A stretch of DNA of 64,000 bases, from assembly GCA_964532495.1 (NCBI GenBank), contig CAZHJZ010000001.1, positions 108,890-172,889 of the forward strand. Reading direction: 5' to 3'. The notes beneath the pieces were generated by a model. The model was not told the DNA's origin and searched no databases. It saw only the letters and a list, made by a program, of their open reading frames with translations. The translations under genes were made by a program, and so were the position numbers. This DNA comes from an uncultured Candidatus Saccharibacteria bacterium (GTDB lineage Bacteria > Patescibacteriota > Minisyncoccia > Phycocordibacterales > UBA9973). Of this stretch, positions 4,501 to 64,000 are shown piece by piece. Within the stretch, counting starts at the first letter, position 1, and the number at the start of each line of letters is the position of its first letter.

Positions 4501-5220
4501 TGGTCCGTTTGGTCCATCAACAATTTCATCGTTTGCAAGAACCGTGCCCATTTCTGGGCACCAATTCACTTCGCTGTACCCTTCGTAGCTCAAGCGATAC
4601 TGCATCAGGATGTTTTCTTTCTGAAGCTTTGAAAAACCTTTCCATTCCTTTGCTGAAAAAACTGATGTCATTTTCGCATCGCAGGCAGCATCAACGCCAG
4701 CATTTCCTTTTTTCTCAAAAATAGAAACGAGCTCAGAAATCGGTCGAGCTTTTTGTTTTGTGTTGTCATACCACGCATTGTAAATCTGAAGGAATATCCA
4801 CTGCGTCCATTTGTAGTATTCAGGATCTGTCGTATTTACTTTGCGAGACCAATCATATGAAAGGCCAATGATAGACATCTGCTTTTCAAACGTCTTCACA
4901 TTTTCATCAACTGCTTTTCGTGGATGCACTTTGTGCTGGATTGCATACTGCTCAGCTGGAAGTCCGAATGCGTCGTATCCCATTGGATGCAGCACATTGA
5001 AACCCTGCATACGCTTCATTCGAGCATAGACGTCAGAACCAATGTAGCCGCGAGGATGGCCGACGTGAAGTCCCGCTCCTGAGGGATACGGAAACATGTC
5101 CAAGACATACATCTTTTTCTTTTTAGAATTCGCCTCAGTCTTGTAGGTCTTGTCGGCCTGCCATTTCTGCTGCCAATGCTTTTCTATCGACGAGTGATCA
5201 TATGCCTTGGGTTTCTTCAT
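1567..5220 (-). CDS. leuS: leucyl-tRNA synthetase, unusually long (1217 aa), with two inserted pyrophosphohydrolase-type domains
   Basis: Class I HIGH motif (HVGHPRGY) and KMSKS (GRKMSKRWGNV). Editing-domain motifs TTRADTLFGV and GTGAVMAVPAHDERDY. Colinear with E. coli LeuRS apart from roughly 200-aa and 160-aa insertions (see findings). Confidence 0.95.
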   Translation of the reverse strand: MKKPKAYDHSSIEKHWQQKWQADKTYKTEANSKKKKMYVLDMFPYPSGAGLHVGHPRGYIGSDVYARMKRMQGFNVLHPMGYDAFGLPAEQYAIQHKVHPRKAVDENVKTFEKQMSIIGLSYDWSRKVNTTDPEYYKWTQWIFLQIYNAWYDNTKQKARPISELVSIFEKKGNAGVDAACDAKMTSVFSAKEWKGFSKLQKENILMQYRLSYEGYSEVNWCPEMGTVLANDEIVDGPNGPVSERGGYPVVKKSMRQWFMRITAYAERLLQDLDGLDWSEHLKEIQRNWIGRSEGSLIPFQIKAEKNHPKQVLVGTRNEAKVKMLRECFPKDSGIELISLNDIPPVDDSSLVEGQDFLENAKMKSEFYFKKTGIPTLSTDNVFWVEKWPKDNQIVIHMRKEAGNGNDKTSDEDVIAFFQKWLKKVGDSKARFIFGLSYTDENGTKTTSSAQREYKFQSKRIKGSFWQGYPTECLLVDAETGVCKGNQTVAERYNVFMSCLKNEVLPWIKLSESVDVFTTRADTLFGVTYISIAPESDVVSKLQPHVLNWKEVEKYIEDVKKKTPEERTNADKEKTGVRLLGVHAINPANGEQVPVWVADYVLAGYGTGAVMAVPAHDERDYAFAKKYNLPIKTVVEEKFWEDRGGEDGIRAKEPFIKRTAAAAIIRNPKDNTYLTTDWKDFVMHGLVTGGVEDGEDLVEAAKREIQEETGYKNLKLVKNPNIVLNSFFYHRIKKQNRHARFCFLMFDLVDESRDPIDEKEAAIHSVVWKTLPELEKNYFTVIEGTRALDLIKNPDYIFTDDGMLIDSGTFSGLDSLEARVQITEAVGGKLVTKFKMRDAIFARQRYWGEPIPLKLDAKIGQIVPLKEKELPLKLPNVTSYEPSGNGESPLAGVKAWVKEGYETNTMPGWAGSSWYFLRYADPLNKSAFASKKSLSYWFGKKDGGVDMYVGGAEHATGHLLYSRFWHKFLFDMGYVPSAEPFKALRNQGMIGGADGRKMSKRWGNVVNPDDVIKTYGADSLRVFEMFLGPFDSHLPWSTEGIIGSRRFIEKVWRLQFKVSEKGKTSPEAEKVLHKTIKKVGDDIAGFNFNTAISAMMICVNEMEKSEAISAKDFKMFLQILAPFASHVTEDLWHELGEKKSIHISGWPKFDPKKLVSDTVKIVVQINGKIRAELTIPKEMPEEEVKALALKDSVIVSWTEGKEIRRVVYVPGRLINIVI

Positions 5221-5263
5221 ATATAGGTCAAAGTATACAGGATTTATAAGGTTTTTCTATATA

Positions 5264-5292
5264 TTGACTATACATAGTATATATGGTATAAT
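5264..5292 (+). promoter_or_regulatory. consensus sigma70-type promoter (TTGACT, 17-nt spacer, TATAAT) upstream of the 5373 gene
   Basis: ttgact at 5264-5269, 17-nt spacer, tataat at 5287-5292. Lies inside the 5210-5296 copy of a duplicated promoter module. Confidence 0.6.
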
Positions 5293-5372
5293 ACTATCAA
5301 GAATCAGTACTGAGATTTCAGAAACGTTCGAGACCGAAACTAAATTTAAAACACCTTTAAAATCACAAAATT

Positions 5373-5798
5373 ATGAAATTCATTCTTACCGCCATTGTAC
5401 TTTTTGTAAATGCTTCACTTTTTGCCCAGTACACAACTTCTTATGAAGGTACTGAAAAGATGATGTATCGCGAAAGCTACTTAACTTTCTACAACAAGTA
5501 CATAACACCGGAAACTAAAACAACGCTTACATTTAAAGGAGCAACCAGCACTGAAAGCCGCGACAAAGTTCAGTCCACAATCGGAACAATGACGCCAGTT
5601 AACATGCTTATGCGCGTCATGGCAAATGTTAGTAAAGATTTTGGCAACTTCAGGTTCATAAGCAAGACGATGCCGAATTTGTTTCTATCAACCGATGGTG
5701 CCATGGTTGTGAAATACGACACTAACTTCAATGCCTGGATGGTATTCCCTGCTACTGGTAAATACTACTGTGAAAACGGATGCATGATATTCAAGTAA
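5373..5798 (+). CDS. small secreted hypothetical protein (141 aa) with signal peptide
   Basis: N-terminal MKFILTAIVLFVNASLFAQ signal-like segment. ATG start. Followed by an intrinsic terminator. Confidence 0.55.
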   Translation: MKFILTAIVLFVNASLFAQYTTSYEGTEKMMYRESYLTFYNKYITPETKTTLTFKGATSTESRDKVQSTIGTMTPVNMLMRVMANVSKDFGNFRFISKTMPNLFLSTDGAMVVKYDTNFNAWMVFPATGKYYCENGCMIFK

Positions 5799-5818
5799 TA
5801 TAGCTATAGAAAAAATAC

Positions 5819-5857
5819 AAACAGCCCGAAATACTATATTTCAGGCTGTTTTTTTAT
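5819..5857 (+). terminator. rho-independent terminator
   Basis: Hairpin acagcc...ggctgt (5821-5849) followed by a T7 run. Confidence 0.7.
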
Positions 5858-5927
5858 TTATTTTCTCAATAATAGGTTTCTTCATATATAGATTAATGAA
5901 TAGAGAATTTATAAAGTTTTGTATGTA

Positions 5928-5956
5928 TTGACCACATGGTTAATACGTGATATAAT
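5928..5956 (+). promoter_or_regulatory. consensus sigma70-type promoter (TTGACC, 17-nt spacer, TATAAT) upstream of the 6026 gene
   Basis: ttgacc at 5928-5933, 17-nt spacer, tataat at 5951-5956. Second copy of the duplicated module (5875-5960). Confidence 0.6.
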
Positions 5957-6025
5957 GCTAACAAGTTTCAATTCTGAAATCCGGGCCGCAGACACCCTTC
6001 TAGAAAGCAACCTTAAAAACAAAAA

Positions 6026-6661
6026 ATGAAACAATCGACCGAATCAATTTTAGCCCTATTGATTAAATCAATACGCCGGGCATTAGGAACATTCTTTGCT
6101 GTATTTGCTTTTTGCTGGTTTGTATTACCAGCAATTAAGGCAGCTCCTACAACTGCTGCATACTATAAGTATGCAATACATCACTCAGAGCTATATGCGT
6201 ACACTGCATTGAATGCGGCAATCTTAGTATTTTTAACAAGCCTTTGTTTTGGACTACACTTTACAAGGTTTGAAATTAACCATGATGGCGACCGTCACTC
6301 ATTTAGCATGATAGGGAGCGTATTTGCTTGGTTAATTTCGATTGTATGTGGAATGTGCTTGGGCGCGGCTATAACTGGAATATATTATCTGCCAGATTTC
6401 AACTTTGACGAAACCGCGTATTTAGTTGGCGGAATTGGAATAGTAATAGGTATATTTGGCAGAACGCCGGCCTTAATATATTTTATTGCAATGGGAGGTA
6501 CGGTAAGCATGCTTACATGCTCTGACCCAGCGCAAACAGGAATTTATTTCGGTTCAGCTGGTGCTGCAGCTTTGATTGGGTTTATTATAAACAGGCTTGG
6601 ATACTTATTTTTTGTATACCGCTTCCCTGTTGAAAAGAATTCAATCCCCACTAAAGCTTAG
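6026..6661 (+). CDS. hypothetical integral membrane protein (211 aa)
   Basis: ORF with several hydrophobic helices. ATG start, own promoter and terminator. Confidence 0.55.
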   Translation: MKQSTESILALLIKSIRRALGTFFAVFAFCWFVLPAIKAAPTTAAYYKYAIHHSELYAYTALNAAILVFLTSLCFGLHFTRFEINHDGDRHSFSMIGSVFAWLISIVCGMCLGAAITGIYYLPDFNFDETAYLVGGIGIVIGIFGRTPALIYFIAMGGTVSMLTCSDPAQTGIYFGSAGAAALIGFIINRLGYLFFVYRFPVEKNSIPTKA

Positions 6662-6710
6662 GGAGACTACAAACCAATCCTCACATTAGAACTAGCATCA
6701 AAAAAAACAA

Positions 6711-6746
6711 ACGCCCCCGAATATTCTTCGCGGGGCATTTTTATTT
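6711..6746. terminator. bidirectional intrinsic terminator between convergent genes
   Basis: GC stem gccccc...gcggggc flanked by an A-run (plus side) and a T-run. Confidence 0.6.
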
Positions 6747-6756
6747 TGCGGAGTTG

Positions 6757-7335
6757 TTAGTCTTTTATCTTTCGAATACCTATCCACACTAGTGCTGCCA
6801 ACGCGCAGGCTAGAACCACAACACGGAGAACATCTTGCATATTGCTCCAGTAGCGCATTGCGCCAATGATGAGCGAAATCACTCCGCCGAGTGAAAATCC
6901 AAGCGAGACTACGCTTGAATAGTTTGTCATGTATGTTCCAAACACAAGCGAGAGGATACCGAGAATGACGAGGACGATGAATACATTTCTGTTATACACG
7001 CTTTCTGCAGAAACATATCCTTGATTGCACGTGTATGTGGCGTTACAGTAACCGGCAACTTTGACTGGATTGTCTACGCGGCTTTCGTCGGGCGTAACTG
7101 GGTATGTGTTCTCAGTCCATTGGCCTCCCGCTTCAGTACACATGATCTTGTCGGTGTATGTCTTTGATGTTAATTCTATTGGGCAGAATTTTTCAAATGT
7201 TGGCTGCTTGTACACCAACGAAATTGCATAGTTAAAGAAGAGGTTGAGCACGACAACGATAGCGGCGATCAATGCCCACTTCACGACGCGGGCTGTTTTT
7301 GCATTATGCGTATTTGGAGTTTGTTGTTCATTCAT
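6757..7335 (-). CDS. hypothetical membrane protein with Cys-containing extracytoplasmic domain (192 aa)
   Basis: N-terminal TM (WALIAAIVVVLNLFF), 8 Cys in the middle domain, two C-terminal TM helices. Confidence 0.5.
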   Translation of the reverse strand: MNEQQTPNTHNAKTARVVKWALIAAIVVVLNLFFNYAISLVYKQPTFEKFCPIELTSKTYTDKIMCTEAGGQWTENTYPVTPDESRVDNPVKVAGYCNATYTCNQGYVSAESVYNRNVFIVLVILGILSLVFGTYMTNYSSVVSLGFSLGGVISLIIGAMRYWSNMQDVLRVVVLACALAALVWIGIRKIKD

Positions 7336-7397
7336 ATAAAATAAGGTGTGTTAGTGATATATTCTCATCATACACCACGCACTAGTGAGACTCAACC

Positions 7398-7910
7398 ATG
7401 AATCCAGATCCCCTCAAACAACTTTCACCGCTTGAACGATTTTCGATCCGCGCAACACGCTGGGTCGGATCGATCCAGTCACTTGTCGTTCACACGATAC
7501 TATTCCTCGTTGCTTTCATATTGATGATTTTCGGCATCAGTTTCGACAAGATACTGCTCGTCCTTACAACAATTGTTTCGCTTGAAGCAATCTATCTTTC
7601 CATTTTTATCCAAATGTCAGTGAATCGCCAAGGCCGCAGGCTGCACGCAGTGTCAAAAGACATTGATGAGATTCAAGAAGATATCGACGAGATCCAGGAA
7701 GACGTTGAAAAAATTGAAAAAGATGTCGATGAAATCCAAGAGGACGTCGAAGAAATTCAAGAAGATGTCGAGGAAATCGGAGAAGATGTTGAAGACATTA
7801 CCGAAGATGACCAAGACGACGATGCGCGCTATGGCCGCATAGAAAAAAACCTGGAGGCCCTCATTCAGGAAATCGGCAGCCTCAAGAAACCGGCAGACAA
7901 AAAGAAATAG
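7398..7910 (+). CDS. DUF1003-like two-TM membrane protein with acidic heptad-repeat tail
   Basis: Segment LVVHTILFLVAFILMIFGI...LEAIYLSIFIQMSVNRQ matches my memory of DUF1003 (LSLEA...MSQNRQ). The C-terminus has seven 7-aa repeats, DIDEIQE-like. Confidence 0.55.
   Translation: MNPDPLKQLSPLERFSIRATRWVGSIQSLVVHTILFLVAFILMIFGISFDKILLVLTTIVSLEAIYLSIFIQMSVNRQGRRLHAVSKDIDEIQEDIDEIQEDVEKIEKDVDEIQEDVEEIQEDVEEIGEDVEDITEDDQDDDARYGRIEKNLEALIQEIGSLKKPADKKK
7659..7805 (+). repeat. 21-bp tandem repeat (7 copies) encoding acidic heptads D[IV][DE]EIQE
   Basis: Units gacattgatgagattcaagaa, gatatcgacgagatccaggaa, and so on, read directly in the sequence. Confidence 0.8.
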
Positions 7911-40760: not shown

Positions 40761-41636
40761 TTAAGCACGTGCGGGTGTTAACCGGCGTCCTGCGGAAAAA
40801 TTCATTCCTTGCCTTACTAAATACGCAAAGAAAGAAAAAATCCCGAAAATAACTAAAGCCATAACCAACAAGGCGGAACCAGCTTCGAATCCGGATAATT
40901 CCTCAGCAGGCTTACCCCACATAGCATGTCCAGCCATATCTATTACACCGCCAATTAAGCCCTTAGAGCTAAATCCGGTTGTACCAGAAGCGCCGGTAGT
41001 ACCAGGTGCGGCCGTAATGGGTGCAGCAGTAGCAGTGGTCGTAGGAGCAACGCTTCTACGAAGGAAGTTACTGTTACCGGCAAACATTATGATTGAATCT
41101 CCATAAACAAAAACTTCGCATTCCAAATCATACGCAAGCGGTGTCCAAACTAAATCAGTACCGCAACCATCGCGTTTTGCAACATCCCAAGCGCCTTTGC
41201 GAAGGGTGTCAGTTGCTAAGCGCAAATTATCTCTTAGCGCACCGGCAAGTGCCAGCGAGCTTTGAAACGTACTAGTTGTGCGTTGAGTAACCTGCGCTGA
41301 AATTAAATTTGCATACACGGTATTGTCATGCGAATTACTGCAGTTAAATACTTTTTCACTTACCTGGCATGGTGCATCCAAACCGGAAGCAATGTTTACC
41401 AGTGAGCAATCAAGTACACGGCAATGGCCATTATCGGTAGGTGTTTTGGTGTTTGCAACAGCAGTATGTGTGTGCTTTTTTTTGTTTTTGCACGGGCAAT
41501 CTTTGTTGGGTTCGTCAGCTAGTTTTGTATCAGGCTGTGCGGTAGTGGTATCTGCGGGCTTAGCCATGCTAAATCCTCCAGCGTTTGCGTTTGCAAAAAA
41601 TAATACCAGGGCGATTGAAAGGATGAAGTTTTTCAT
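40761..41636 (-). CDS. Cys-rich secreted/surface hypothetical protein with signal peptide and C-terminal TM anchor
   Basis: MKNFILSIALVLFFANANA signal. 12 Cys. Thr/Ala/Gly-rich linker, then a hydrophobic C-terminal helix and basic tail. Confidence 0.5.
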   Translation of the reverse strand: MKNFILSIALVLFFANANAGGFSMAKPADTTTAQPDTKLADEPNKDCPCKNKKKHTHTAVANTKTPTDNGHCRVLDCSLVNIASGLDAPCQVSEKVFNCSNSHDNTVYANLISAQVTQRTTSTFQSSLALAGALRDNLRLATDTLRKGAWDVAKRDGCGTDLVWTPLAYDLECEVFVYGDSIIMFAGNSNFLRRSVAPTTTATAAPITAAPGTTGASGTTGFSSKGLIGGVIDMAGHAMWGKPAEELSGFEAGSALLVMALVIFGIFSFFAYLVRQGMNFSAGRRLTPARA

Positions 41637-41774: not shown

Positions 41775-41829
41775 TTGTCAACTACCCCATGCCCCATACC
41801 TTGACAAATAAGGATAAACAGTGTATAAA
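41775..41829. promoter_or_regulatory. divergent promoter pair with inverted -35 elements (ttgtcaa / ttgacaa)
   Basis: Plus strand: ttgaca (41801-41806), 17-nt spacer, tataaa (41824-41829) with an upstream TG. Minus strand: ttgaca (rc of 41775-41780), 16-nt spacer, tataat. Confidence 0.5.
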
Positions 41830-41847
41830 TACAAAAAAATACTTTCC

Positions 41848-42957
41848 ATGAAAATAAGACTCATCTCCACCCTTATAGCAGTGATTACTTTTCTCTATAC
41901 CAATGCGCAGACCGATTTCAGGGCTTTGCCTGGCTACAACAAGTACGAAGGCCTCGCACATGTCCCCCGCTTATTGGCCGACATGCGCATGTGGGCAGCC
42001 CAATACCCTGAGCTGATCCGCGAAACCGGCAACAAATTTCATATGGATTCAAAAGGCAACTGCAAGCTGTTCAATGCTCCAGTTGTTTCCACCGATCCGT
42101 TCTTCAAGTCAAAAGAACTCGGGAAGTTCGCTATGAAATTCGACGCAACAGTATATGAATTTGAATATACGGGCGGAAGTACCGTGAATGAAAATGCATC
42201 TGAACATGTAAGTATCAGTATGAGCTCAAACAGTTCAAACAAAGGAACTGCGAAGCGCACTACTGATACTCTTTCGCGCCAACAAAAGAAGGAACTCGAA
42301 GACGCCGTTGGGCTTACATTAGGCACGTGCATTCTCGGTGAAGAAAAAGGAATGTTGTTTACCAACAATGCAGCCATCATCAATCCAACGCCAGCTGATT
42401 ACAATAAATTATATGTAATCGTATACAGCGATATTGAAGACAACGGGTGCTCAGCTGTTCAAACATTGTATTTGCCTGTAATGATATCTACCGGCGTTAA
42501 GAACCCGGTAAACAATCAACATCATGGCCCGCAAATATATTACCTCGCAGTGCTTGGCAAAAACGCGCCATCGCAAGGCGAATTGAATGAACACATGGTT
42601 GAATCAATGTTCCATGCGGGAAAACCCGCTCCAATGTTTGAATCCAACACCACGTATCGTAAAACAAATCTCGACCATCTTGATTTCGTTTTCAATCAGG
42701 GCGGCGAGAACCTGTATACGATCCTTGTAGACGGAATGCCAATATATAGGGATATATCTCTGAGTGGAGCAGACAAGAAAACGCTAAGCTTGCCATTAAC
42801 ACCAAAATCACACGCCAAAATCACGATACGGATAACTAACACTGGAAATCTTTCAGGCGGAACGATAAACGTAACGTGCGAAAACGTAAACATTCATTCA
42901 GCTTTTCCATTTAAAAAAGTGAACGAAGAAGCATATATAGATATAGAACGAGAGTAA
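41848..42957 (+). CDS. secreted hypothetical protein (about 369 aa) with signal peptide
   Basis: ATG at 41848 gives MKIRLISTLIAVITFLYTNAQ. The track ORF begins at an upstream GTG. Confidence 0.55.
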   Translation: MKIRLISTLIAVITFLYTNAQTDFRALPGYNKYEGLAHVPRLLADMRMWAAQYPELIRETGNKFHMDSKGNCKLFNAPVVSTDPFFKSKELGKFAMKFDATVYEFEYTGGSTVNENASEHVSISMSSNSSNKGTAKRTTDTLSRQQKKELEDAVGLTLGTCILGEEKGMLFTNNAAIINPTPADYNKLYVIVYSDIEDNGCSAVQTLYLPVMISTGVKNPVNNQHHGPQIYYLAVLGKNAPSQGELNEHMVESMFHAGKPAPMFESNTTYRKTNLDHLDFVFNQGGENLYTILVDGMPIYRDISLSGADKKTLSLPLTPKSHAKITIRITNTGNLSGGTINVTCENVNIHSAFPFKKVNEEAYIDIERE

Positions 42958-43102: not shown

Positions 43103-43504
43103 TTACTTTTTCTTTAGGGTATCAGCCTGCAAGTACTTCATGTACTTATCAAAATAAGCTGTTGAATACTTGCCAGCTTTTACGCCGATAATATCAAACG
43201 TTTTCGTTTGCTTATCACGGTCGCGATGGATAACTACTGAATCGCCAACCGCTAAGGTAATCTTGGCGTGGGTAAGGTACATAGTTACATTATCAATAAT
43301 GTTCGCTGTATCTTCCCGCAAAACCGGCAATCCAGTTCTATTGTCTACTTCGTAGTACAGTACAGTGGCCGCTTTACCTTTGGCAGTAGGAACACGGGAA
43401 ATTACCCCGGCTTTGGCAACCCTGAAATCAGATTTATCGTAACCACCACATGAAGATAGTAATAGAATTCCGCACGCAAAAAGAAAAGAAAATATATGTT
43501 TCAT
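43103..43504 (-). CDS. hypothetical lipoprotein
   Basis: MKHIFSFLFACGILLLSSCGG lipobox (LSSC) from an internal ATG. Confidence 0.55.
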   Translation of the reverse strand: MKHIFSFLFACGILLLSSCGGYDKSDFRVAKAGVISRVPTAKGKAATVLYYEVDNRTGLPVLREDTANIIDNVTMYLTHAKITLAVGDSVVIHRDRDKQTKTFDIIGVKAGKYSTAYFDKYMKYLQADTLKKK

Positions 43505-43610
43505 AAAAAGGGTTTTGTGTTCAAAACGTGCGATATGCATCCATTTGAACTGGTTTAGAATTTTTCAAACTATAGCATCTGTTTGTTAATTGTCAATACT
43601 TATACAATAT

Positions 43611-43644: not shown

Positions 43645-45918
43645 TTATTTTGCGATCTTTACCGCTTCATCGAACTTGATTGAAAGGAGTTTTGATCCCC
43701 CATCAGCGCCGATTGTAACGCCGTAGAGAACTTTTGCTCGGGACATTGTTTCGCGATTGTGAGTAACCACAATGAGCTGTGAATAGTGAGAGAGGTTTTC
43801 GATCATATCTCCGTAGCGGCGTGAATTTGCTTCATCAAGAGCGGCGTCAGTTTCGTCTAGAACAAGGAATGGAGGCGGGTTGACCTGCGACATTGCAAAG
43901 AGGAGCGCAATAGAAGTAAGAGAACGCTCGCCACCCGAGAGCATATGCAGGTCTTTTACTTTTTTATGAGGAAGGGAGACATTGATCTCAATACCTCGCT
44001 CAAACTCGAAGTCGGCGTCATTTGCTACAGGTATTTCATCGGCTTCTTCATCGCCGTCTTTGGTTGGGCGTTTGTGTTCCACCACAATTGAAAGGAAAGC
44101 ATGTCCCCCGCCGAACATGAGCGAGAAGAAGTTGGTAAATTCCTTGTTGATCTTTTCAACACCCATCTTAAATTCGCTATCGATCTTTTGCTTGAGATCG
44201 CTGATGAGCGCGCGCAGTTCGGTAATAGCCTGATCAATATCTGAAAGCTCACGAGCGAGGAATTCGTCTCGAGATACTGTTTCTTCGTATTCTTTTACAA
44301 CTTCCGTTCCGCCTTGAGCACCGGCATCTTCGAGCTTGTATTTGATACGATCAATCTTTTTCTTGAGTTCGTCTTGCTCGGCTTTTGGAGCGATCTCTGT
44401 GCCTGGAGTAAATCGGATTGCTTCAGGCCCGACAAGGATGCTTGCCTGCTTGAGTTCGTCTTCAAATTCCATTTCTACGCGGCCGAGATTCTCTCGCTCA
44501 AGCGTAACCATGCGGAGTTCGGATTCGAGTTCCTGCTTCGCTGCCTTGAGCTCGTAGTACGCACGCTCCTGCTCTCGAATGACGCTTTCGTCGGATTTCT
44601 TTTCTGATTGGAGTTTTGTTATTTCAGTCTGAAGCTGCATTTTTGCAGTATCAAGTTCGGCGATCTCGTTTTCAACTGACTGGATGCTATCCCGCAATGT
44701 CTGGATTTGAGCTTCAACATGGGAACGGTCAACGATGGGGCCCTGGTTTTTGTCTGTCTTTCGGTAGTAAATAAATTGTTCGAATGTTTCTCGTACGCGC
44801 GTAATCGAGTCGCGGATTTCCGCAACATCATCCTGAGAAAGTAATCCTGCGAGCTCTCGATCTATGTCAGTGAACAATCCTTCAATTTCTTGAAGTGATA
44901 CTGCGATGTTTTCTGGAGTGCGCTCTTTTTCTGGAGCGTTCAGTTGTTCTTCTAAAAGTGCAATAGAACCTTCAACTCGTCCGAGTTTGCGAGTAAGTTC
45001 GGCCTGTGAGGTCAGATGCTTGTTGTATTCAGTCTGAAGACGAGCAACTTCGAGCGAAGTTCCCGCGTCTTCTACTGGAGCGTTGTGTGAAGCTTCTTTT
45101 GATTTGATGTTATTTTCTGCTTCAGTAATGCGAGTCTGAAGAGTAGTTCGCTTTTCTTCAAGGCCGTTCTTTTCATGAGTGATGAACGCAGTCTGTTTTG
45201 TGAAATAGTCTCGATACAAGCCACCGAGTTCAACGCGAAGTTCCTGAGCCTTCTCTATTTTCTCTACCTGCTTTTTCAAGAAGCCGATATGCGGAGCAAT
45301 CTCGCGGCGGAGTGACTGCACTTCTTTCATATTGGAAAGCGTCTTATCGAGCTTTCGTTCGCTCTCGCGGAGACGATACTGATACACTCGGAGGCCAAGA
45401 GCATCTTCGATCATGCCGCGACGATCCTTTGCATTTGCCGAAAGAAGCCGGTCTGCTTCACCCTGAGAAATGATGTGGTGGCCAGACGAGCCGATGTTGA
45501 CCGAAGCCACAAGTTCTAAAATATCCTTGAGACGAACTTCAGTATTATTTAACTTGTATGTGTTAGATCCATCGCTGAACACTTCGCGGGAAATAGAGAT
45601 TTCATCGAAGTCTAAGTTCAGTGCCTTCTCCCCTGTTTTTGGCAATGAAAATACTTTGCGTGAATTATCAAAGACAATGGTAACACTCGCGCGCGAAAGA
45701 GACCCCAATGCCTTGGAACCTTTGAAGATCATGTCAGCCCCGCCTTTTCCGCGGAGAGATTTGATGGATTGTTCACCGAGCACGAAACGGACGGCCTCAA
45801 CAACGTTCGACTTTCCAGAACCGTTCGGTCCAACAATCGCTGTGACGGGCGCATCGAAATCAAGCGTCGTTTTTTTTGCAAACGATTTGAAACCTGAGAG
45901 CTCGAGGCGTTTTAACAT
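43645..45918 (-). CDS. smc: SMC chromosome-condensation ATPase, short hinge-less form
   Basis: N-terminus LELSGFKSFAKKTTLDFDAPVTAIVGPNGSGKSNVVEAVRFVLGEQS. C-terminal signature LSGGERSLTSIALLFA and Walker B LVLDETDAALD. Continuous coiled coil in between with no Gly-rich hinge. rnc-smc synteny. Confidence 0.8.
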   Translation of the reverse strand: MLKRLELSGFKSFAKKTTLDFDAPVTAIVGPNGSGKSNVVEAVRFVLGEQSIKSLRGKGGADMIFKGSKALGSLSRASVTIVFDNSRKVFSLPKTGEKALNLDFDEISISREVFSDGSNTYKLNNTEVRLKDILELVASVNIGSSGHHIISQGEADRLLSANAKDRRGMIEDALGLRVYQYRLRESERKLDKTLSNMKEVQSLRREIAPHIGFLKKQVEKIEKAQELRVELGGLYRDYFTKQTAFITHEKNGLEEKRTTLQTRITEAENNIKSKEASHNAPVEDAGTSLEVARLQTEYNKHLTSQAELTRKLGRVEGSIALLEEQLNAPEKERTPENIAVSLQEIEGLFTDIDRELAGLLSQDDVAEIRDSITRVRETFEQFIYYRKTDKNQGPIVDRSHVEAQIQTLRDSIQSVENEIAELDTAKMQLQTEITKLQSEKKSDESVIREQERAYYELKAAKQELESELRMVTLERENLGRVEMEFEDELKQASILVGPEAIRFTPGTEIAPKAEQDELKKKIDRIKYKLEDAGAQGGTEVVKEYEETVSRDEFLARELSDIDQAITELRALISDLKQKIDSEFKMGVEKINKEFTNFFSLMFGGGHAFLSIVVEHKRPTKDGDEEADEIPVANDADFEFERGIEINVSLPHKKVKDLHMLSGGERSLTSIALLFAMSQVNPPPFLVLDETDAALDEANSRRYGDMIENLSHYSQLIVVTHNRETMSRAKVLYGVTIGADGGSKLLSIKFDEAVKIAK

Positions 45919-45987
45919 CAGCATATTACAAGCTCAATTTTACACTGAAAAGGTAAATATACCAACGGGGATAACTGGAATCACGTC

Positions 45988-46982: not shown

Positions 46983-47888
46983 TTAGCGCTTTCCAGTAAT
47001 GATAGGAATAGCCTTGGCGATCAATGCCGTCACACTATCATACATGTGGAGGGTTGTCACCTCTTTCAATGAGAACCATTTGCAGTCATCAAGGCCGCCT
47101 GAGGTTGACTCAAGTTTGACTGGAACGTACGAAGACTCGCCCAAATAAAAGATCACCTGCTTGCGGATCTTACCTTTTTGAGGATGCGATGCGACGTATT
47201 CATCGTCGCCAAGCTTTTCGACAATCTTCATGTCGAGGCTCATTTCTTCTTTGATCTCTCGGATCGCAGCTTGCTCCGGTGTTTCTCCTTCTTCAACGCT
47301 TCCTTTTGAAAGTGTCCAGTAGCCGAACACATCATGCACCATGGCAAGGTAAATCTCGCCCTTATCTATGGCGTATACGACTGCGCCCGCCTTGCTTTCA
47401 ATCGGGAGCTTGGTGATGTCCACGGGCTCATCTTTCATCTGTCGTTTTGACTTCTGGTCTTTGCCTGGTTCGCCAAGTTCTTTGTACACCGCACCCAATA
47501 CGCCGTTCACAAATCGTGACGAGCTGTCTGAGCCGAATGTTTTCGCAAGTTCGATCGCTTCATTAATAGAAACTTTTGGAGGAACTTCGTTGTGATCGCC
47601 AAACAAAAGCTCAGCAAGTCCCATGCGAAGAATATTTCGATCAACTGCATTGATCTTGTCGATCGGCCATTCTGGAGCAGCCTTTGCAACAATTTCATCA
47701 ATAAGATCCTTTTTGCGAATAACGTTCATAGTGAGCGTTGTCATAAACGGCAAGTCTTCGAGACCTGGAGCGAACTCTTCTGAGTTGCGCTTCAAAATAC
47801 CCTCGACATCGCTGTCTGGCTTACCTTTAAAATCCCACTCGAAGAGGGTTTGGAGAATCACTGAACGTGAAAGATGACGATTTGCCAT
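46983..47888 (-). CDS. nusB: NusB antitermination factor fused to a C-terminal NUDIX hydrolase domain
   Basis: NusB fold over residues 1-140 (ILQTLFEWDF, LRMGLAELLF). Nudix box GSVEEGETPEQAAIREIKEEMSL in the C-terminal 140 aa. Confidence 0.8.
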   Translation of the reverse strand: MANRHLSRSVILQTLFEWDFKGKPDSDVEGILKRNSEEFAPGLEDLPFMTTLTMNVIRKKDLIDEIVAKAAPEWPIDKINAVDRNILRMGLAELLFGDHNEVPPKVSINEAIELAKTFGSDSSSRFVNGVLGAVYKELGEPGKDQKSKRQMKDEPVDITKLPIESKAGAVVYAIDKGEIYLAMVHDVFGYWTLSKGSVEEGETPEQAAIREIKEEMSLDMKIVEKLGDDEYVASHPQKGKIRKQVIFYLGESSYVPVKLESTSGGLDDCKWFSLKEVTTLHMYDSVTALIAKAIPIITGKR

Positions 47889-58205: not shown

Positions 58206-58754
58206 TTATACCTTAAGCTTACTAATCAAATCTCTTACAGCATTTCCTCTATGCGAAAACTTATTTTTTTCTTCCGGAGTAAATTCAAGCATCGGCCGGT
58301 CAGTTCCGTCTACTTGGATGAAAAGATCAAATTCACATGCGCCAGGGTCAACTGGCTTTGGTTTTACAACAACGCCTTCAATAGAGCCTAGACCCATCAC
58401 TGGTTCTTTCTGCCCATCATAAACTCCAAGACGGCAGACAAGCATGATCCTTGATCCAATGAATTTCATTCCCATCTCGTACGGATTAAAACATTCAAGA
58501 AAATCCTTGATATAAGGGCCTGGGAAGCCTTTTAGGGCTTCAAAGTGAAGCGAGGTATCATCTACGAGCACCGGTTCTTTGAACTGCTCATAAGCATATT
58601 GAAGTTTGTGTTTAATTATTTCCTCCGGCTTCCCTTGAATCTCAAAATAACCAGGAAGCACTTTCTGCTCGCAATCAAAAAACTCGCCGAGCGCCAGCGA
58701 AAGCTCTCTAAATTTGAGAGAATTCCCTGTAACGATAGCGAGTTTTTGTTTCAT
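58206..58754 (-). CDS. non-canonical purine NTP pyrophosphatase (Ham1/RdgB/ITPase family)
   Basis: IVTGNSLKFRE, EIQGKPEE, PVLVDDTSLHFEALKGFPGPY, and the FSHRGNA terminal motif. Confidence 0.8.
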   Translation of the reverse strand: MKQKLAIVTGNSLKFRELSLALGEFFDCEQKVLPGYFEIQGKPEEIIKHKLQYAYEQFKEPVLVDDTSLHFEALKGFPGPYIKDFLECFNPYEMGMKFIGSRIMLVCRLGVYDGQKEPVMGLGSIEGVVVKPKPVDPGACEFDLFIQVDGTDRPMLEFTPEEKNKFSHRGNAVRDLISKLKV

Positions 58755-58766
58755 ATAGTTTGGGTG

Positions 58767-60863
58767 TTAGATATCCAATTCCGCCATCTTGGCATGCGTC
58801 TGGATAAATGTTTTGCGAGGAGCAACATCGGAGCCCATGAGCATGTCGAAGACTTTGTCTGCGTCAGCTGCGAGTTCAATGTTCACCTGCTTGATAACGC
58901 GTCGAGCTGGGTCCATAGTTGTTTCCCAAAGCTCTTCGGCATTCATTTCTCCCAAACCTTTATATCGCTGAATGTGGACTTTTACAGCTCGAGGCTTGCC
59001 GTCTTTCACTTCGACAACCTCCACTTCCTCGCCTTCTTCTTCACCACCTCCGTCGCGTTCTGCCTGGGCGATCATTTCATCAAGGTCAACATCTTTCTCT
59101 TGTCCAATGACAGCAACTTTTTCTTCGTCGGAATATGCGTAGAAAATTTCCTTTCCTTTTTTGATCTTGTAGAGTGGTGGCTGAGCGATATAGATAAATC
59201 CGCCATCCAAAAGTGGCTTGAAGTATCGGTACAAGAGCGTGAGGATCAATGTTCGAATGTGCGCTCCGTCCACGTCGGCATCGGTTGCGATGATAACTTT
59301 ATGATAACGAAGTTTGGAAATATCGAAGGTATCTCCGATTGCAGTTCCCAAAGCAACCACGAGGTTCTTGATCTGTTCTGAAGCAAGCATGCGGTCGAGG
59401 CGCGCTCGTTCGATGTTCAAGATCTTTCCTCGAAGCGGCAAGATAGCCTGTGTCTTTCGATCGCGGCCGGTCTTTGCAGTACCTCCCGCAGAGTCTCCTT
59501 CCACAATGAAGAGTTCAGATTCTTCGGCGCTTTTTGACTGACAGTCGGCAAGCTTACCTGGAAGCGTCATTCCTTCGAGTGCGCCTTTTCGCAAAATAGA
59601 GTCTTTAGCTGCTTTCGCTGCTTTGCGAGCTCGAACTGCGAGAATTGCTTTGTTGATGATTGATTTAGCCTGATCTGGATTTTCCTCAAGGAAAGCTGCG
59701 AAAGCATCGCCAAACACCGTTGCTACGGCACCCTGGGCCTCCATAGAGCCGAGTTTGGCCTTTGTCTGGCCTTCGAACTGAATCTCAGCAAGCTTTACTG
59801 AAATAACAGCCGTGAGACCTTCAAGTACGTCTTCACCGGTAAATCCGCCATCAGCTTCTTTGATGAGGTTGTTTTTCTTTCCGTAGGTATTGAGCAAGCG
59901 AGTAAGCGCTGTCTTGAAACCTGTAACATGCGTTCCTCCTTCTGGAGTATGGATGTTGTTAGCAAACGGAACGATTTTTGTTTCAATTTCATCCGTGTAC
60001 TGGAGAGCGATTTCAACGCCGACATTATCTAATTCCTTGTCGACATAAAAAACGGTTTCCTGAATCGCTTTCAATCCTTGGTTGTAGTATTTGACCAATG
60101 ACATCAAGCCTCCTTCGAAATAGAACGAGTATGACGGGACTTCGATGTTGAGATCGCCGAACCAGTATGCATCATCAAGTGAGAATTTTTTGTTAAAAAG
60201 AGTATCAGCGTCCATTTCTCGGGCATCGATAATGGTGAGCTTCAATCCTTTGACGAGATATGCCTGTTGTCGCATGTGGTTGACCACCGTGCTCCAGGTG
60301 AACTTTACGCCTTCTTTGAAGATTTCTGGATCTGGAGAAAATGTCGTGATCGTTCCATGCAATTTTGAAGAACCAACTTTTTTGACATTGGCTTTCTTTT
60401 TACCCTGCGAATACTCTTGCATAAAGATACCGCCATCTCGATGAACGACTACCTTCGTATAGATTGAGAGTGCGTTGACAACGGAAGCACCGACACCGTG
60501 GAGACCTCCGGACACTTTATAGCCAGATCCTTCTCCGCCGAATTTTCCACCGGCATGGAGCGTGGTCATGACCATTTCAAGCGCTGAGAGTTTTGTTTTC
60601 GGATGGATATCAGTTGGAATACCGCGGCCGTTATCTACGACGCGGATAAAGTTATCAGGAAGAAGCGTAACCTCAATGCGGTTCGCATGGCCTGCCATCG
60701 CCTCGTCGCGAGAGTTATCAAAAATTTCCCAGATCAAATGGTGAAGACCATCAGGACCAGTTGATCCGATGTACATTCCGGGACGCTTTCGAACAGGTTC
60801 AAGTCCCTCGAGCACTTGGATCTGCTCGGCACCGTATTTAGCTTTCGATTCGTCTTTGGCCAT
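58767..60863 (-). CDS. gyrB: DNA gyrase subunit B (compact, 698 aa)
   Basis: GHKL ATPase motifs (LHHLIWEIFDNSRDE, GLHGVGASVVNALS). TOPRIM EGDSAGG. C-terminal QRYKGLGEM. Confidence 0.9.
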   Translation of the reverse strand: MAKDESKAKYGAEQIQVLEGLEPVRKRPGMYIGSTGPDGLHHLIWEIFDNSRDEAMAGHANRIEVTLLPDNFIRVVDNGRGIPTDIHPKTKLSALEMVMTTLHAGGKFGGEGSGYKVSGGLHGVGASVVNALSIYTKVVVHRDGGIFMQEYSQGKKKANVKKVGSSKLHGTITTFSPDPEIFKEGVKFTWSTVVNHMRQQAYLVKGLKLTIIDAREMDADTLFNKKFSLDDAYWFGDLNIEVPSYSFYFEGGLMSLVKYYNQGLKAIQETVFYVDKELDNVGVEIALQYTDEIETKIVPFANNIHTPEGGTHVTGFKTALTRLLNTYGKKNNLIKEADGGFTGEDVLEGLTAVISVKLAEIQFEGQTKAKLGSMEAQGAVATVFGDAFAAFLEENPDQAKSIINKAILAVRARKAAKAAKDSILRKGALEGMTLPGKLADCQSKSAEESELFIVEGDSAGGTAKTGRDRKTQAILPLRGKILNIERARLDRMLASEQIKNLVVALGTAIGDTFDISKLRYHKVIIATDADVDGAHIRTLILTLLYRYFKPLLDGGFIYIAQPPLYKIKKGKEIFYAYSDEEKVAVIGQEKDVDLDEMIAQAERDGGGEEEGEEVEVVEVKDGKPRAVKVHIQRYKGLGEMNAEELWETTMDPARRVIKQVNIELAADADKVFDMLMGSDVAPRKTFIQTHAKMAELDI

Positions 60864-61175
60864 ATGTATGTGTTGATTATAAAAATAAAAAAGCGCACCA
60901 GAAATGTTGATTTGTACCTATAAAGTATAGCATGTTTTCAATACAAAAACCAGTACAAAATACCGGTTTTAAGCTTGCAAAATAAGGGTCTTTTAACTCC
61001 ATCGGAGTCTCTGAGGGGACGTCTTACGGCACATTGTTCTCGATAGGCGTATTGTTATCTACAACAATACTTTCATTTGCTACAATTTCGCCATCAGTGC
61101 CTGCATTCATGCAACACCCCACGCCACGCCATCACCAGTGTTTAGAGACACTAGCACAGTGAACATAGAAAACTA

Positions 61176-61210
61176 ATAAAAAAGCCAGTCATATTGCTAT
61201 GCTGGCTTTG
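61176..61210 (-). terminator. intrinsic terminator downstream of the T9SS-CTD gene
   Basis: aagccagtc atattgctatg ctggctt, with a T-run on the minus strand. Confidence 0.65.
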
Positions 61211-61238
61211 TAAAAATATATCCACTAAACTAAATTAA

Positions 61239-62930
61239 TTATTCAATTATTATCTTCTTTGCAGTACTGTTACCTGCTTTTAGGAAGTACATTCCTTTTG
61301 GCCAGTCTACTTGCATTTGTTGTTGACCGGAAGTCAGTCGAACCGGTTTCAGTTTTTTACCAACAATGTCGTATACCTCTATAATACCGATATTCCGATA
61401 ATCTTCACACGCAACAGTAAATGTTCCATTGTTTGGACTGGGATATACAGCAAAAGTAGTCTTTGCAACTGTAGCAACGCTTGTTGGCGTGGCAATAGCT
61501 GGGTATGTTTCAACTCTCAGTGTTGTTGAATCGCCGCCGAACATTTCAGCTCTTATACCTGAAAAAAATTCATATATAAGATTGTTGTATCTCAACTCCA
61601 TATCTACAGTTGTCTGAGCAGGGATTTTACCCGCTTGAATAAACTGCAATGCGCGAGTTGAAATTTGCAACTCATTATCTGAAGGATCGGGGTTAAACAC
61701 CTCAATCCTTGAATTCTGCACGATTGTATCTTCAGGTGCATGGCCTAATTGGAAAGGGTTTGTTGCAGTACTACTGATGTAAATAAACGGCATCCGCATA
61801 TCGGGGCCAATATTTACCTGTCCCGGTTGTGCCGGAATATGAGTGTGTACTGTAAACTTTTCTCTCCAAAAGTTGCAAGAACTTATTTCCCACTGATTTC
61901 CATTTACAATAAGGAAATTGAATTGGGTAAAAATGGTTAGCAGCGCCGAGTCTGGGGCGCGGGGAAACAAGTTGCGGAAAAATGGCATCATACCATCTAT
62001 CCCAAGACTATCCGTCATTTTCATGCCTTCGTAAAAATCGTGAGCTATCACTGGGTTCCCTGTGTCAATGATAAACGCTGGTGAAACAAAACTGAATGTT
62101 AGTGTTTGGCCTGGTAATAATATAATTTTACCGTCCATATCACTACTTTCAAATTGTTTTACCTCGTCATATATGATTGGATCCCTAGTAAAAAACTCAG
62201 AGTAAAATTTGTTTGTTACGTGAGATAACTCGTAACATTCGCCGTTTTCTTTTGTGTAACAATACCGGCGTGATGAATCAAGCCACTCCGAATGCTCCCG
62301 GACATCTTGTGCTGACATGTGATCTTGCGGTACACCCGGAATTGTATCTAGGTACCGCGGTTCTCCATCATCTGGATCATTCAATATAGTGTCACCGTTA
62401 AGAAACACTTCACCGACAGTATGGCCTGATAAAATCACCGTGCGAAGCGAATCCAGCGGAATCATTTGCGTCTCCTTGGTAAGATGATCGAAGAAAATCT
62501 GACGCTCTCCGCACATTTGCGAAGCATTGCTCAAGAAAAACGCACATGGAGAATACTGTTTGCGAGCAAGTAATGTATCAAATCCGTTTATGCCGTAGGT
62601 GCTTGGTGCAGGCCTTCTGCAGTGTACAGTGGAAGGACTTTTTACAATCCTGCCATATTCTCTTATATATGCCATAGGGTCGCCAGTGGCAATCATATGG
62701 TTAAGGAAAGATGGTTTATCAGCAAAAATTAAGTCACCTGGCTTATCGAACTTTGTTAACATATAGAACATTTTGGGAAATGTATCAGTGTTCGTAATCC
62801 TGACTGAAAAGCTGTCACCAGGGTTTGGAACACTAGTGCCAAAACCGTTGAATAAGTTAACAACTTGTGCATTTACAGAAATAGCAAAAAACAAAGCGGC
62901 AACTGCCAACAAAAGGTTATTTTTTTTCAT
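61239..62930 (-). CDS. secreted protein with N-terminal signal peptide and T9SS type-A C-terminal sorting domain (Por_Secre_tail-like)
   Basis: MKKNNLLLAVAALFFAISVNAQ signal. The C-terminal roughly 75 aa, FAVYPSPNNGTFTV...IIEVYDIVGKKL...GMYFLKAGNSTAKKIIIE, match the T9SS CTD consensus. Confidence 0.7.
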   Translation of the reverse strand: MKKNNLLLAVAALFFAISVNAQVVNLFNGFGTSVPNPGDSFSVRITNTDTFPKMFYMLTKFDKPGDLIFADKPSFLNHMIATGDPMAYIREYGRIVKSPSTVHCRRPAPSTYGINGFDTLLARKQYSPCAFFLSNASQMCGERQIFFDHLTKETQMIPLDSLRTVILSGHTVGEVFLNGDTILNDPDDGEPRYLDTIPGVPQDHMSAQDVREHSEWLDSSRRYCYTKENGECYELSHVTNKFYSEFFTRDPIIYDEVKQFESSDMDGKIILLPGQTLTFSFVSPAFIIDTGNPVIAHDFYEGMKMTDSLGIDGMMPFFRNLFPRAPDSALLTIFTQFNFLIVNGNQWEISSCNFWREKFTVHTHIPAQPGQVNIGPDMRMPFIYISSTATNPFQLGHAPEDTIVQNSRIEVFNPDPSDNELQISTRALQFIQAGKIPAQTTVDMELRYNNLIYEFFSGIRAEMFGGDSTTLRVETYPAIATPTSVATVAKTTFAVYPSPNNGTFTVACEDYRNIGIIEVYDIVGKKLKPVRLTSGQQQMQVDWPKGMYFLKAGNSTAKKIIIE

Positions 62931-63058: not shown

Positions 63059-64000
63059 TTAAATTTCAGAAACAGGAGCAGGGGTGGGGGTGGGGGTGGG
63101 AGGTGTCTCTGGCTGACTTTGCTCAACGGGTGGGCTTGCGGGTTCATCAGACGGAGTTTCTGCGGTTACAGTATCGTCAACCACTGGAATGACTTCTGGA
63201 TCAGGAGTAGGAGTAGGTCCTGGAGTAGGCTCTGGTGTGGGCTCTGGTGTTGGTGTTGGTGTTGGTGTTGGTGTTGGTGTTGGTGTTGGTGTTGGTGTTG
63301 AAACTTGCTGCTGTGGCAGTAATTGTTTCAATTGGTGAAGCTCGGCTCGAGTGATACATTCGTCTGGATAGCCTTCCTCTGATAAACAAACCTCTCGAGT
63401 AAATATTCGCGTGATACCGTTGCTTGCACTTCCCAACCATGTACTGATCGATGACAAGAAAGTATTGCTTGGCGTGGTGAGAGTATCCATTGATGCTACT
63501 TTCAAATTGAGTTCTTGGACTGACTTGATAAGAAGCGGGATAAATGTCTTGTAATCAACCATCATATATCCATCTGTTCGATGACCTACTGCTTCTGGAT
63601 AAAGAGGTTCGACTTGCTGAGCCAGAACCCCAGTATGCTGCTTGCCGTTATCGTTAATGATTGACTGATCATATGTAAAGTCAACAACGCGGATATCTTT
63701 CAATACGTCCAAACCATAGCCAGTATCAACTATATTCTGCTTTGTGCGCTGGTCTGAAGGAGCAGTTGTATCGATAGTGTTTGTTCCGACATAGAGCGTA
63801 GCTGCTCCGGAACCGCTGGTAGCATTGCTAATCTTATTGTTATCGCCATCAACACCAATACGGAGACCTGTAAGGAAAAAGTTTTGTGCCTCTGCATCAT
63901 TAATATATAAAGCATATTCCGCTCCTCCGGTTGCCTGGAGTGACGCACTGCTGAAGTACAAACCATAGACATCCTGAGCAGTTAGAGAAGGAATGTCTGT
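63059..64000 (-). CDS. tail-fibre-like surface protein with S74 intramolecular chaperone domain and (TP)n linker; N-terminus outside the window
   Basis: SDQRTKQNIVDTGYGLDVLKDIRVVDFTYDQ...GVLAQQVEPLYPEAV...GYMMVDYKTFIPLLIKSVQEL matches the endosialidase/tail-spike C-terminal chaperone signature. The frame stays open to the window edge upstream of the listed TTG. Confidence 0.7.
   Translation of the reverse strand, partial: TDIPSLTAQDVYGLYFSSASLQATGGAEYALYINDAEAQNFFLTGLRIGVDGDNNKISNATSGSGAATLYVGTNTIDTTAPSDQRTKQNIVDTGYGLDVLKDIRVVDFTYDQSIINDNGKQHTGVLAQQVEPLYPEAVGHRTDGYMMVDYKTFIPLLIKSVQELNLKVASMDTLTTPSNTFLSSISTWLGSASNGITRIFTREVCLSEEGYPDECITRAELHQLKQLLPQQQVSTPTPTPTPTPTPTPTPTPEPTPEPTPGPTPTPDPEVIPVVDDTVTAETPSDEPASPPVEQSQPETPPTPTPTPAPVSEI
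63081..63100 (+). repeat. G-quadruplex-type motif GGGGTGGGGGTGGGGGTGGG
   Basis: Read directly. Encodes PPTPTP on the opposite strand. Confidence 0.6.
63245..63300. repeat. (TGGTGT)n hexanucleotide microsatellite, about 9 units, encoding (TP)n on the minus strand
   Basis: Read directly. Confidence 0.9.

Follow-up and report, generated by a model that had tools for sequence, protein, structure and literature searches.

A secreted-protein gene near one end of the 64-kb stretch of DNA analysed here (contig CAZHJZ010000001.1; the window) most probably represents a Bacteroidota-type cargo gene of a type IX secretion system (T9SS) that was horizontally transferred and is now carried by a Paceibacteria-like genome of the candidate phyla radiation (CPR). 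We assign this reading a probability of roughly 0.7. The gene (the target) encodes a protein that ends in a T9SS type-A C-terminal sorting domain (CTD), for which a role in T9SS secretion is improbable in this host. Under the favoured scenario, the gene would have passed from Bacteroidota into CPR, and its product would be exported by the Sec pathway and cut by signal peptidase I before Gln22. Outside the cell the protein may act as a cysteine peptidase, an amidase or a transglutaminase-like Cys-His-Asp enzyme, possibly together with the Peptidase_S74 (S74) fibre-like proteins encoded beside it in cell–cell contact, and the CTD would persist as a folded beta-sandwich module with another role, such as stability or binding.

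61239..62930, reverse strand: the target, a complete gene for a secreted protein of 563 amino acids (aa), defined by the open reading frame (ORF) list, domain matches and an AlphaFold2 (AF2) model.
62868..62930, reverse strand: Sec signal peptide, aa 1–21 (MKKNNLLLAVAALFFAISVNA), called by inspection, with signal peptidase I cleavage predicted before Gln22.
62316..62573, reverse strand: putative transglutaminase-like (papain-fold) cysteine peptidase core, aa ~120–205, with the candidate triad Cys140, His170 and Asp185 (plus Asp187).
61242..61448, reverse strand: T9SS type-A CTD (Por_Secre_tail), aa 495–563, with VYPSPNNG, GMYFLK and AKKIIIE.
61176..61209, reverse strand: probable intrinsic terminator, an inverted repeat with a T-run (AAAGCCAG...CTGGCTTTTTT), recognised by eye just past the stop codon.

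The initial annotation, made from the letters alone, had read the last ~75 aa of the protein as a type-A Por secretion tail and named failure against TIGR04183 as grounds for abandoning that call. The tail passed this check. TIGR04183 matched residues 495–562 of 563 over the full length of the profile with 34.2 bits (cut-off 23, E 1.9e-8), and PF18962 likewise gave a full-length match to residues 495–562 (34.1 bits, cut-off 27, E 3.5e-8), so both curated cut-offs were exceeded. The domain lies at the extreme C-terminus of a protein with a Sec signal peptide, forms an Ig-like beta-sandwich resembling solved CTDs, and gives a residue-by-residue alignment with the NucA CTD of Flavobacterium johnsoniae (8glk_D), which was solved within the T9SS translocon complex. 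Foldseek comparison of the target model with the PDB found the CTD as the sole real match, the others being Ig-like noise (TM ~0.1), and a BFVD structure search returned weak CTD or Ig-type matches only. A chance match and a generic FN3 or Ig domain were both considered for the tail and rejected. The tail has every testable feature of a type-A CTD, and is of the same type as those of known T9SS cargo recognised by TIGR04183/PF18962 (NucA, RemA and FspA of F. johnsoniae, mirolase of Tannerella forsythia and RgpB of Porphyromonas gingivalis). Motifs B, D and E were kept in all five alleles of the target, as was the C-terminal basic residue (Lys, or Lys/Arg in allele P0003). In F. johnsoniae, the C-terminal Lys of the CTD contacts PorV (PMC12398890). 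A narrow CTD hidden Markov model (HMM) detected no second CTD protein in the window or in related loci L001–L007.

The 563-aa protein consists of the signal peptide, a catalytic-like region with an Ig-like domain (~460 aa together) and the CTD. Its N-terminus reads MKKNNLLLAVAALFFAISVNA|QVV and lacks a lipobox cysteine; both the signal peptide and this absence were judged by sequence inspection only. The A-Q-V-V junction is common to all alleles, and residues 2–17 form a signal-peptide helix in the AF2 model. This model, built on a 60-sequence alignment, reached a predicted local distance difference test score (pLDDT) of 88.9 and a predicted TM score (pTM) of 0.81, and replaced a run with only four close homologues in which the N-terminal region was unusable (pLDDT 36). 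The hairpin of the terminator has a loop of >8 nucleotides (nt) and hence fell outside the listing of a simple scanner; its position with a T-run right after the stop codon suggests that the target gene is its own transcription unit.

The identity of the host was assessed from the remainder of the window, which is a run of housekeeping genes in CPR-like style (leuS, rpsB, tsf, rpoD, dnaG, rpoB, rpoC, rnr, smc, dnaE, thrS and gyrB) with one tRNA and, within its 64 kb, no rRNA. A search of 5.8 billion proteins with GyrB found named relatives only in Ca. Paceibacterota, Ca. Pacebacteria and Ca. Nomurabacteria, with one further relative labelled only 'bacterium', at 75–77 % identity. Two syntenic genomes, whose GyrB and ThrS are 95–97 % identical to those of the window, were deposited as Ca. 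Paceibacterota and Ca. Saccharibacteria metagenome-assembled genomes (MAGs). GyrB and ThrS both group with CPR genomes, and the host falls outside the Fibrobacterota–Chlorobiota–Bacteroidota (FCB) superphylum. The GyrB relatives and the syntenic genomes indicate that the host is a member of the CPR/Patescibacteria, most likely Paceibacteria-like.

A recent review limits T9SS and CTD proteins to the FCB superphylum (PMC12398890), and the clade to which CPR have been assigned is monoderm (10.1101/2021.05.31.446380). Genes for the T9SS (SprA/Sov, PorK/L/M/N, PorV, PorU and PorT) or for an outer membrane were found neither among ~40 scanned ORFs of the window, in agreement with the absence of T9SS machinery remarked upon initially, nor in the ~20-kb flanks (~100 kb) of related loci. 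Since neither an outer membrane nor a T9SS is expected in a CPR host, T9SS secretion of the target and cleavage of its CTD by PorU are unlikely, and in a monoderm cell the CTD would be unable to serve as an outer-membrane secretion signal. Because the tail has the features of a CTD and the host lies outside the FCB superphylum, we classify the target as T9SS-type cargo outside its usual range and not as demonstrated T9SS cargo. The initial annotation had offered two options, of which a reduced FCB-group symbiont was not borne out, the GyrB relatives and syntenic genomes being CPR. The other, under which a cargo signal of T9SS type occurs beyond its normal range, describes what was found, namely a CTD passing TIGR04183 in a Patescibacteria/CPR host. 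Horizontal transfer, which is the simplest explanation, was not among its options. Bacteroidota have been reported to be comparatively frequent donors in horizontal gene transfer (HGT) to Patescibacteria in groundwater (PMC12455944).

The target gene forms part of an island between pheT and gyrB, the other elements of which are as follows.

63059..64000, reverse strand: 3' part of the upstream island gene, encoding a large S74 fibre-like protein with a Thr/Pro/Glu-rich tail (PF13884, 47.7 bits); the gene runs off the window.
60864..61238, reverse strand: 375-bp spacer between the island and gyrB, in which a second S74 gene, intact in the related locus L002, has left a weak remnant (tblastn with the second S74 protein of L002, S74b).
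58767..60863, reverse strand: gyrB, the conserved backbone gene bounding the island, on which the taxonomic placement and the comparison with empty sites were based.

Five independent assemblies (the window, GCA_964450735.1, GCA_031973655.1, a JGI contig and JACCDG011957051.1) hold the target gene between an S74 gene and gyrB, and a Logan contig provides a sixth instance. Assembly chimera was excluded by this synteny, which is conserved across independent assemblies. At two other loci (L014 and L015, with GyrB 93 and 92 % identical) pheT directly abuts gyrB. This empty site in close relatives indicates that the cassette of S74 fibre gene and target, sometimes with a second S74 gene, is an accessory insertion. 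Full-length orthologues of the S74 protein (L002, L003 and L016) are 865–871 aa long, with a signal peptide and weak YadA_head matches. Within the spacer, S74b of L002 gave a weak 10-aa match (NTGDGVGWGL versus NTGDGVAWGV, E 0.05), and the gyrB-proximal 136 nt are 78 % identical. This weak remnant suggests that the ancestral cassette may have had an S74 gene on either side of the target, the order seen in L002 and L010.

A more distant member of the family (P0006, 31 % identity) lies on a 746-kb contig at another location with S74 genes on both sides, one of them sharing 38 % identity with the window clade's S74 gene, which indicates that the association of the family gene with fibres recurs. 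The CTD of P0006 is internally deleted, having lost its middle, and does not match PF18962. Another member (P0010) has an intact CTD and lies 1.3 kb from a GyrB gene whose product is 66 % identical to that of the window; it probably belongs to another Patescibacteria lineage. Narrow-alignment scans for related loci added one locus from metagenomes (L016), and, run with the clade pattern, found no relative among the 2.9 million viral contigs of IMG/VR.

Large S74 fibre-like proteins are recurrent in these CPR genomes, where as many as three are encoded within 20 kb (L002 7283–9880 and 11781–14153; L016 1078–3690; L010 7269–9884 and 11695–13635). Their signal peptides end in ..AQ or ..AA, and their C-terminal tails are rich in Thr, Pro and Glu. 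In the window, the region coding for the S74 tail (about 63100–63300) is a near-perfect low-complexity repeat of ACNCCN type. Signal peptides ending in AQ had earlier been counted as a sign of FCB bacteria; this does not hold here, as the signal peptides of S74 fibre proteins from this very lineage also have ..AQ or ..AA endings and one of the proteins in question (at 41821) is an orphan.

Comparison of alleles revealed a hypervariable locus in a conserved backbone. Within the window clade, the GyrB and ThrS proteins are 95–99 % identical, with a proportion of synonymous differences (pS) of 0.46–0.54. Target alleles are 54–81 % identical, and most pairs fall at 54–65 %, with a saturated pS of 0.70–0.74 and a proportion of nonsynonymous differences (pN) of 0.23–0.29. 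In every segment of the target, CTD included, pN lies far below the saturated pS, and conservation of the CTD is not lower than that of the remainder of the protein. This indicates that the CTD is maintained by selection. Two loci from different sources, L003 (1–11000) and L016 (1–11876), show 100 % nt identity on both sides of a ~3.7-kb patch (L016 ~3900–7630) that covers the target and gyrB, where identity ranges over 58–99 % and is lowest over the CTD-coding end (58 % nt identity) and the spacer. The patch looks like a clean homologous-recombination tract, and on these alignments we regard the locus as a recombining, hypervariable surface-protein locus. At another locus (L005, JGI 3300056825 contig), gyrB, thrS and the target are split into short ORFs, which looks like assembly indel errors; the 419-aa P0004 is therefore taken as a truncated call of a full-length allele matching L016.

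Residues 1–484 of the target had no match in NCBIfam or Pfam. A word-based search retrieved the four closest homologues only. An HMMER profile of residues 1–485, without the CTD, run against 1.84 billion (1.84e9) representatives, retrieved 66 clusters, of which 12 had E ≤1e-30. In an alignment of 60 family sequences, no variation was seen at His170 or Asp185, and conservation reached at least 90 % at Cys140 and Asp187. The order and spacing of the triad (C-x29-H-x14-D) fit the transglutaminase-like fold, and in the AF2 model Cys140 opens helix 140–154, and the two strands that follow carry His170 and Asp185 or directly precede them. This modelled layout is putatively that of transglutaminase-like papain-fold enzymes. 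PF01841 (Transglut_core) did not match the target at E up to 1 and matched one of the 60 relatives (E 0.026). The family Cys is replaced by Ser in relative P0009, and some relatives are without it. A search of PDB sequences with the family profile matched CTDs only, leaving the catalytic region unmatched. Within the transglutaminase-like/papain-fold superfamily, the vasohibin tubulinyl-Tyr carboxypeptidases are the candidate structural match of the target, which differs from the superfamily in its large helical and beta insertions, its extra Ig-like domain and its lack of a significant Pfam match.

Members of the family are mostly 470–660 aa long; their signal peptides close with ..AQ or ..SQ, and their C-termini are of PNP type. 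PF18962 was passed by 34 of the 60 members, and a type-B CHU_C signal was seen in one. One of the clusters includes a protein named 'T9SS type A sorting domain-containing protein [Chitinophagales bacterium]', and the closest outgroup (P0005) has an OMP beta-barrel gene nearby. Two others, P0016 (L012 7797–11695) and P0013 (L019 6110–9889), occur in large-genome, non-CPR contexts directly downstream of two-component systems, the family gene lying immediately 3' of genes for an OmpR-type response regulator and a HisKA kinase. This adjacency may reflect a conserved regulatory link. Taken together, the CTDs, signal peptides and sampled contexts make the family look like ordinary Bacteroidota T9SS cargo. 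We describe it as a family of about 66 clusters of uncharacterised, unannotated, putative transglutaminase-like secreted enzymes.

The demonstrated parts of our reading are the identities of the domains, the CPR affiliation of the host, the island with its empty site, and the hypervariability of the alleles together with purifying selection. Several points weigh against the remainder. Purifying selection on the CTD is unexpected for a purely vestigial domain. The direction of transfer was inferred from domain logic and about eight sampled genomic contexts, and in a rough neighbour-joining (NJ) tree the CPR-context members (the window clade, P0006 and probably P0010) did not form one clean clade, although this tree is indicative only, being neither rooted nor taxon-labelled and of unreliable topology at 20–30 % identity. 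Composition gave no independent support for transfer; GC content at third codon positions (GC3) was 0.37 for the target versus 0.41–0.49 for housekeeping genes, and both this value and codon usage were only mildly atypical, like those of the other accessory genes in the window. Finally, the absence of T9SS and outer-membrane genes was assumed from the lineage, the genome having been viewed over 64 kb.

The selection on the CTD and the link to fibres would be explained if the domain were a T9SS-recognition module aimed at a Bacteroidota host, with which a CPR epibiont would mimic host cargo and dock on the PorV shuttle, SprA or the attachment complex. In a lineage expected to be without T9SS, the CTD has a pN like that of the remainder of the protein beside a saturated pS, and every allele keeps motifs B, D and E and the basic residue at the PorV position (PMC12398890). 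The target is linked to S74 fibre-like surface proteins in two different CPR contexts, its locus is hypervariable and recombining, as expected of host-interaction genes, and family relatives occur in Chitinophagales-type bacteria. Bacteroidota and Patescibacteria moreover co-occur and exchange genes (PMC12455944). However, nothing points directly to a Bacteroidota host, the CTD is normally recognised from the periplasmic side, so that access from outside is speculative, and the loss of the CTD middle in P0006 makes an intact domain dispensable in at least one CPR-context lineage. A folding or stability role could by itself explain the conservation of the CTD. We therefore consider host-cargo mimicry unlikely. 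Its more specific form, in which the CTD was co-opted as a host hook and the exported enzyme and fibre cassette would engage the PorV/SprA/attachment machinery of a Chitinophagales-like member of the Bacteroidota, is slightly more doubtful still. If it were true, the CTD would not only work as a host-targeting module but also point, from the genome, to the host of the lineage.

Transfer from Bacteroidota could also be replaced by the reverse, in which a family native to CPR (or to phages) moved into Bacteroidota and gained its CTD there, or by several transfers in both directions. The scatter of CPR-context members in the NJ tree would fit such a history, but the topology is unreliable, as noted above. 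Phage proteins could have been vehicles: the BFVD matches A0A6J5M064, A0A6J5L910 and A0A6J5M2J1 are T9SS CTDs on phage or phage-binned DNA. However, a search of the viral contigs with the clade pattern found no relative. The CTD and signal peptide form a package with a known function in FCB bacteria only, the CTD is present in 34 of 60 family members, and the gene is accessory in CPR, with empty sites in close relatives. We regard reverse or multiple transfer as improbable.

An ordinary T9SS cargo protein, whether of a reduced FCB-group bacterium or of a CPR organism with a functional T9SS-like machine, is very improbable. A Gln at position +1 after the signal peptide and an intact CTD look exactly like functional cargo, and 64 kb of the genome were inspected. 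Against this, the GyrB relatives and syntenic genomes are CPR, neither the window nor the ~100 kb of related loci held a T9SS or outer-membrane gene, CPR are regarded as monoderm (10.1101/2021.05.31.446380) and T9SS is described as specific to FCB bacteria (PMC12398890). An assembly or binning artefact, with a Bacteroidota fragment mis-joined to a CPR contig, can practically be dismissed, since the low GC3 of the target relative to housekeeping genes is shared by other accessory genes of the window, and the same neighbours recur in five independent assemblies (NCBI, JGI and Logan) with alleles that are 54–81 % identical.

The target, for which we continue to prefer transfer from Bacteroidota, differs from known CTD cargo of Bacteroidota. 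Its genome is Patescibacteria/CPR, outside the FCB superphylum, where an outer membrane and T9SS are not expected; no T9SS genes lie near it, and its linkage to S74 fibres is unlike that of the sampled Bacteroidota relatives. The literature searched for T9SS or Por secretion together with Patescibacteria, CPR, Parcubacteria or Saccharibacteria yielded no description of a CTD protein from CPR; one candidate report for Parcubacteria (PMC5596340) concerns SAR406 instead. The locus provides a multi-genome counter-example to the statement that CTD proteins are restricted to FCB bacteria (PMC12398890). The occurrence of CTD proteins in CPR also implies that a TIGR04183/PF18962 match alone is unfit as a taxonomic marker, as a sign of T9SS or as a flag of MAG contamination. 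It furthermore offers a natural experiment on a T9SS CTD without T9SS, selected in the window clade and partly deleted in P0006.

HGT islands described in Patescibacteria (PMC12455944) are likewise accessory insertions in a syntenic, streamlined genome with Bacteroidota as a plausible donor phylum. The present island differs from them in that the target gene bears a secretion signal for a machine that the recipient should lack, and in that it is a hypervariable cassette for surface proteins, not a metabolic or informational gene. Like phage tail-fibre and tailspike proteins, the neighbouring island proteins end in an S74 intramolecular chaperone domain and have fibre-like repeats (the weak YadA_head matches), but they carry cellular signal peptides and have housekeeping neighbours and no other phage genes, and the IMG/VR search with the clade pattern did not find the cassette. 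A hypervariable CPR cassette of S74 fibre genes and a putative enzyme is hereby newly defined. The hosts of CPR have long been difficult to find. The Chitinophagales-type donor signal provides a testable clue to the ecological partner of this uncultivated Paceibacteria lineage.

Further features of the window were noted. Small predicted secreted proteins or lipoproteins without a Pfam match are encoded at 41821–42957 and 5373–5798 on the forward strand and at 40761–41636 and 43103–43540 on the reverse strand; two small secreted orphans of the window have signal peptides ending in AQ. The 378-aa protein at 41821–42957 had no homologue but itself among the 5.8 billion proteins, and therefore speaks neither for nor against multiple transfers from Bacteroidota. 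On similarity searches, we regard these small secreted proteins as lineage-specific orphans. The SMC homologue (43645–45924, reverse strand) is 759 aa long compared with a bacterial model of 1181 positions, of which its best stretch covers the first ~377 only, and appears to have a strongly shortened coiled coil. A 301-aa ORF (46983–47888, reverse strand) joins a NusB domain (7–136) to a NUDIX hydrolase domain (172–279) in an apparent gene fusion. The leucyl-tRNA synthetase (1567–5220, reverse strand) is, at 1217 aa, about 350 aa over the usual length, and contains an inserted Ham1/ITPase-like (XTP/dITP diphosphatase) segment at residues ~309–450 (NF011397, E 4e-8); a stand-alone Ham1 gene lies at 58206–58754, right after gyrB.

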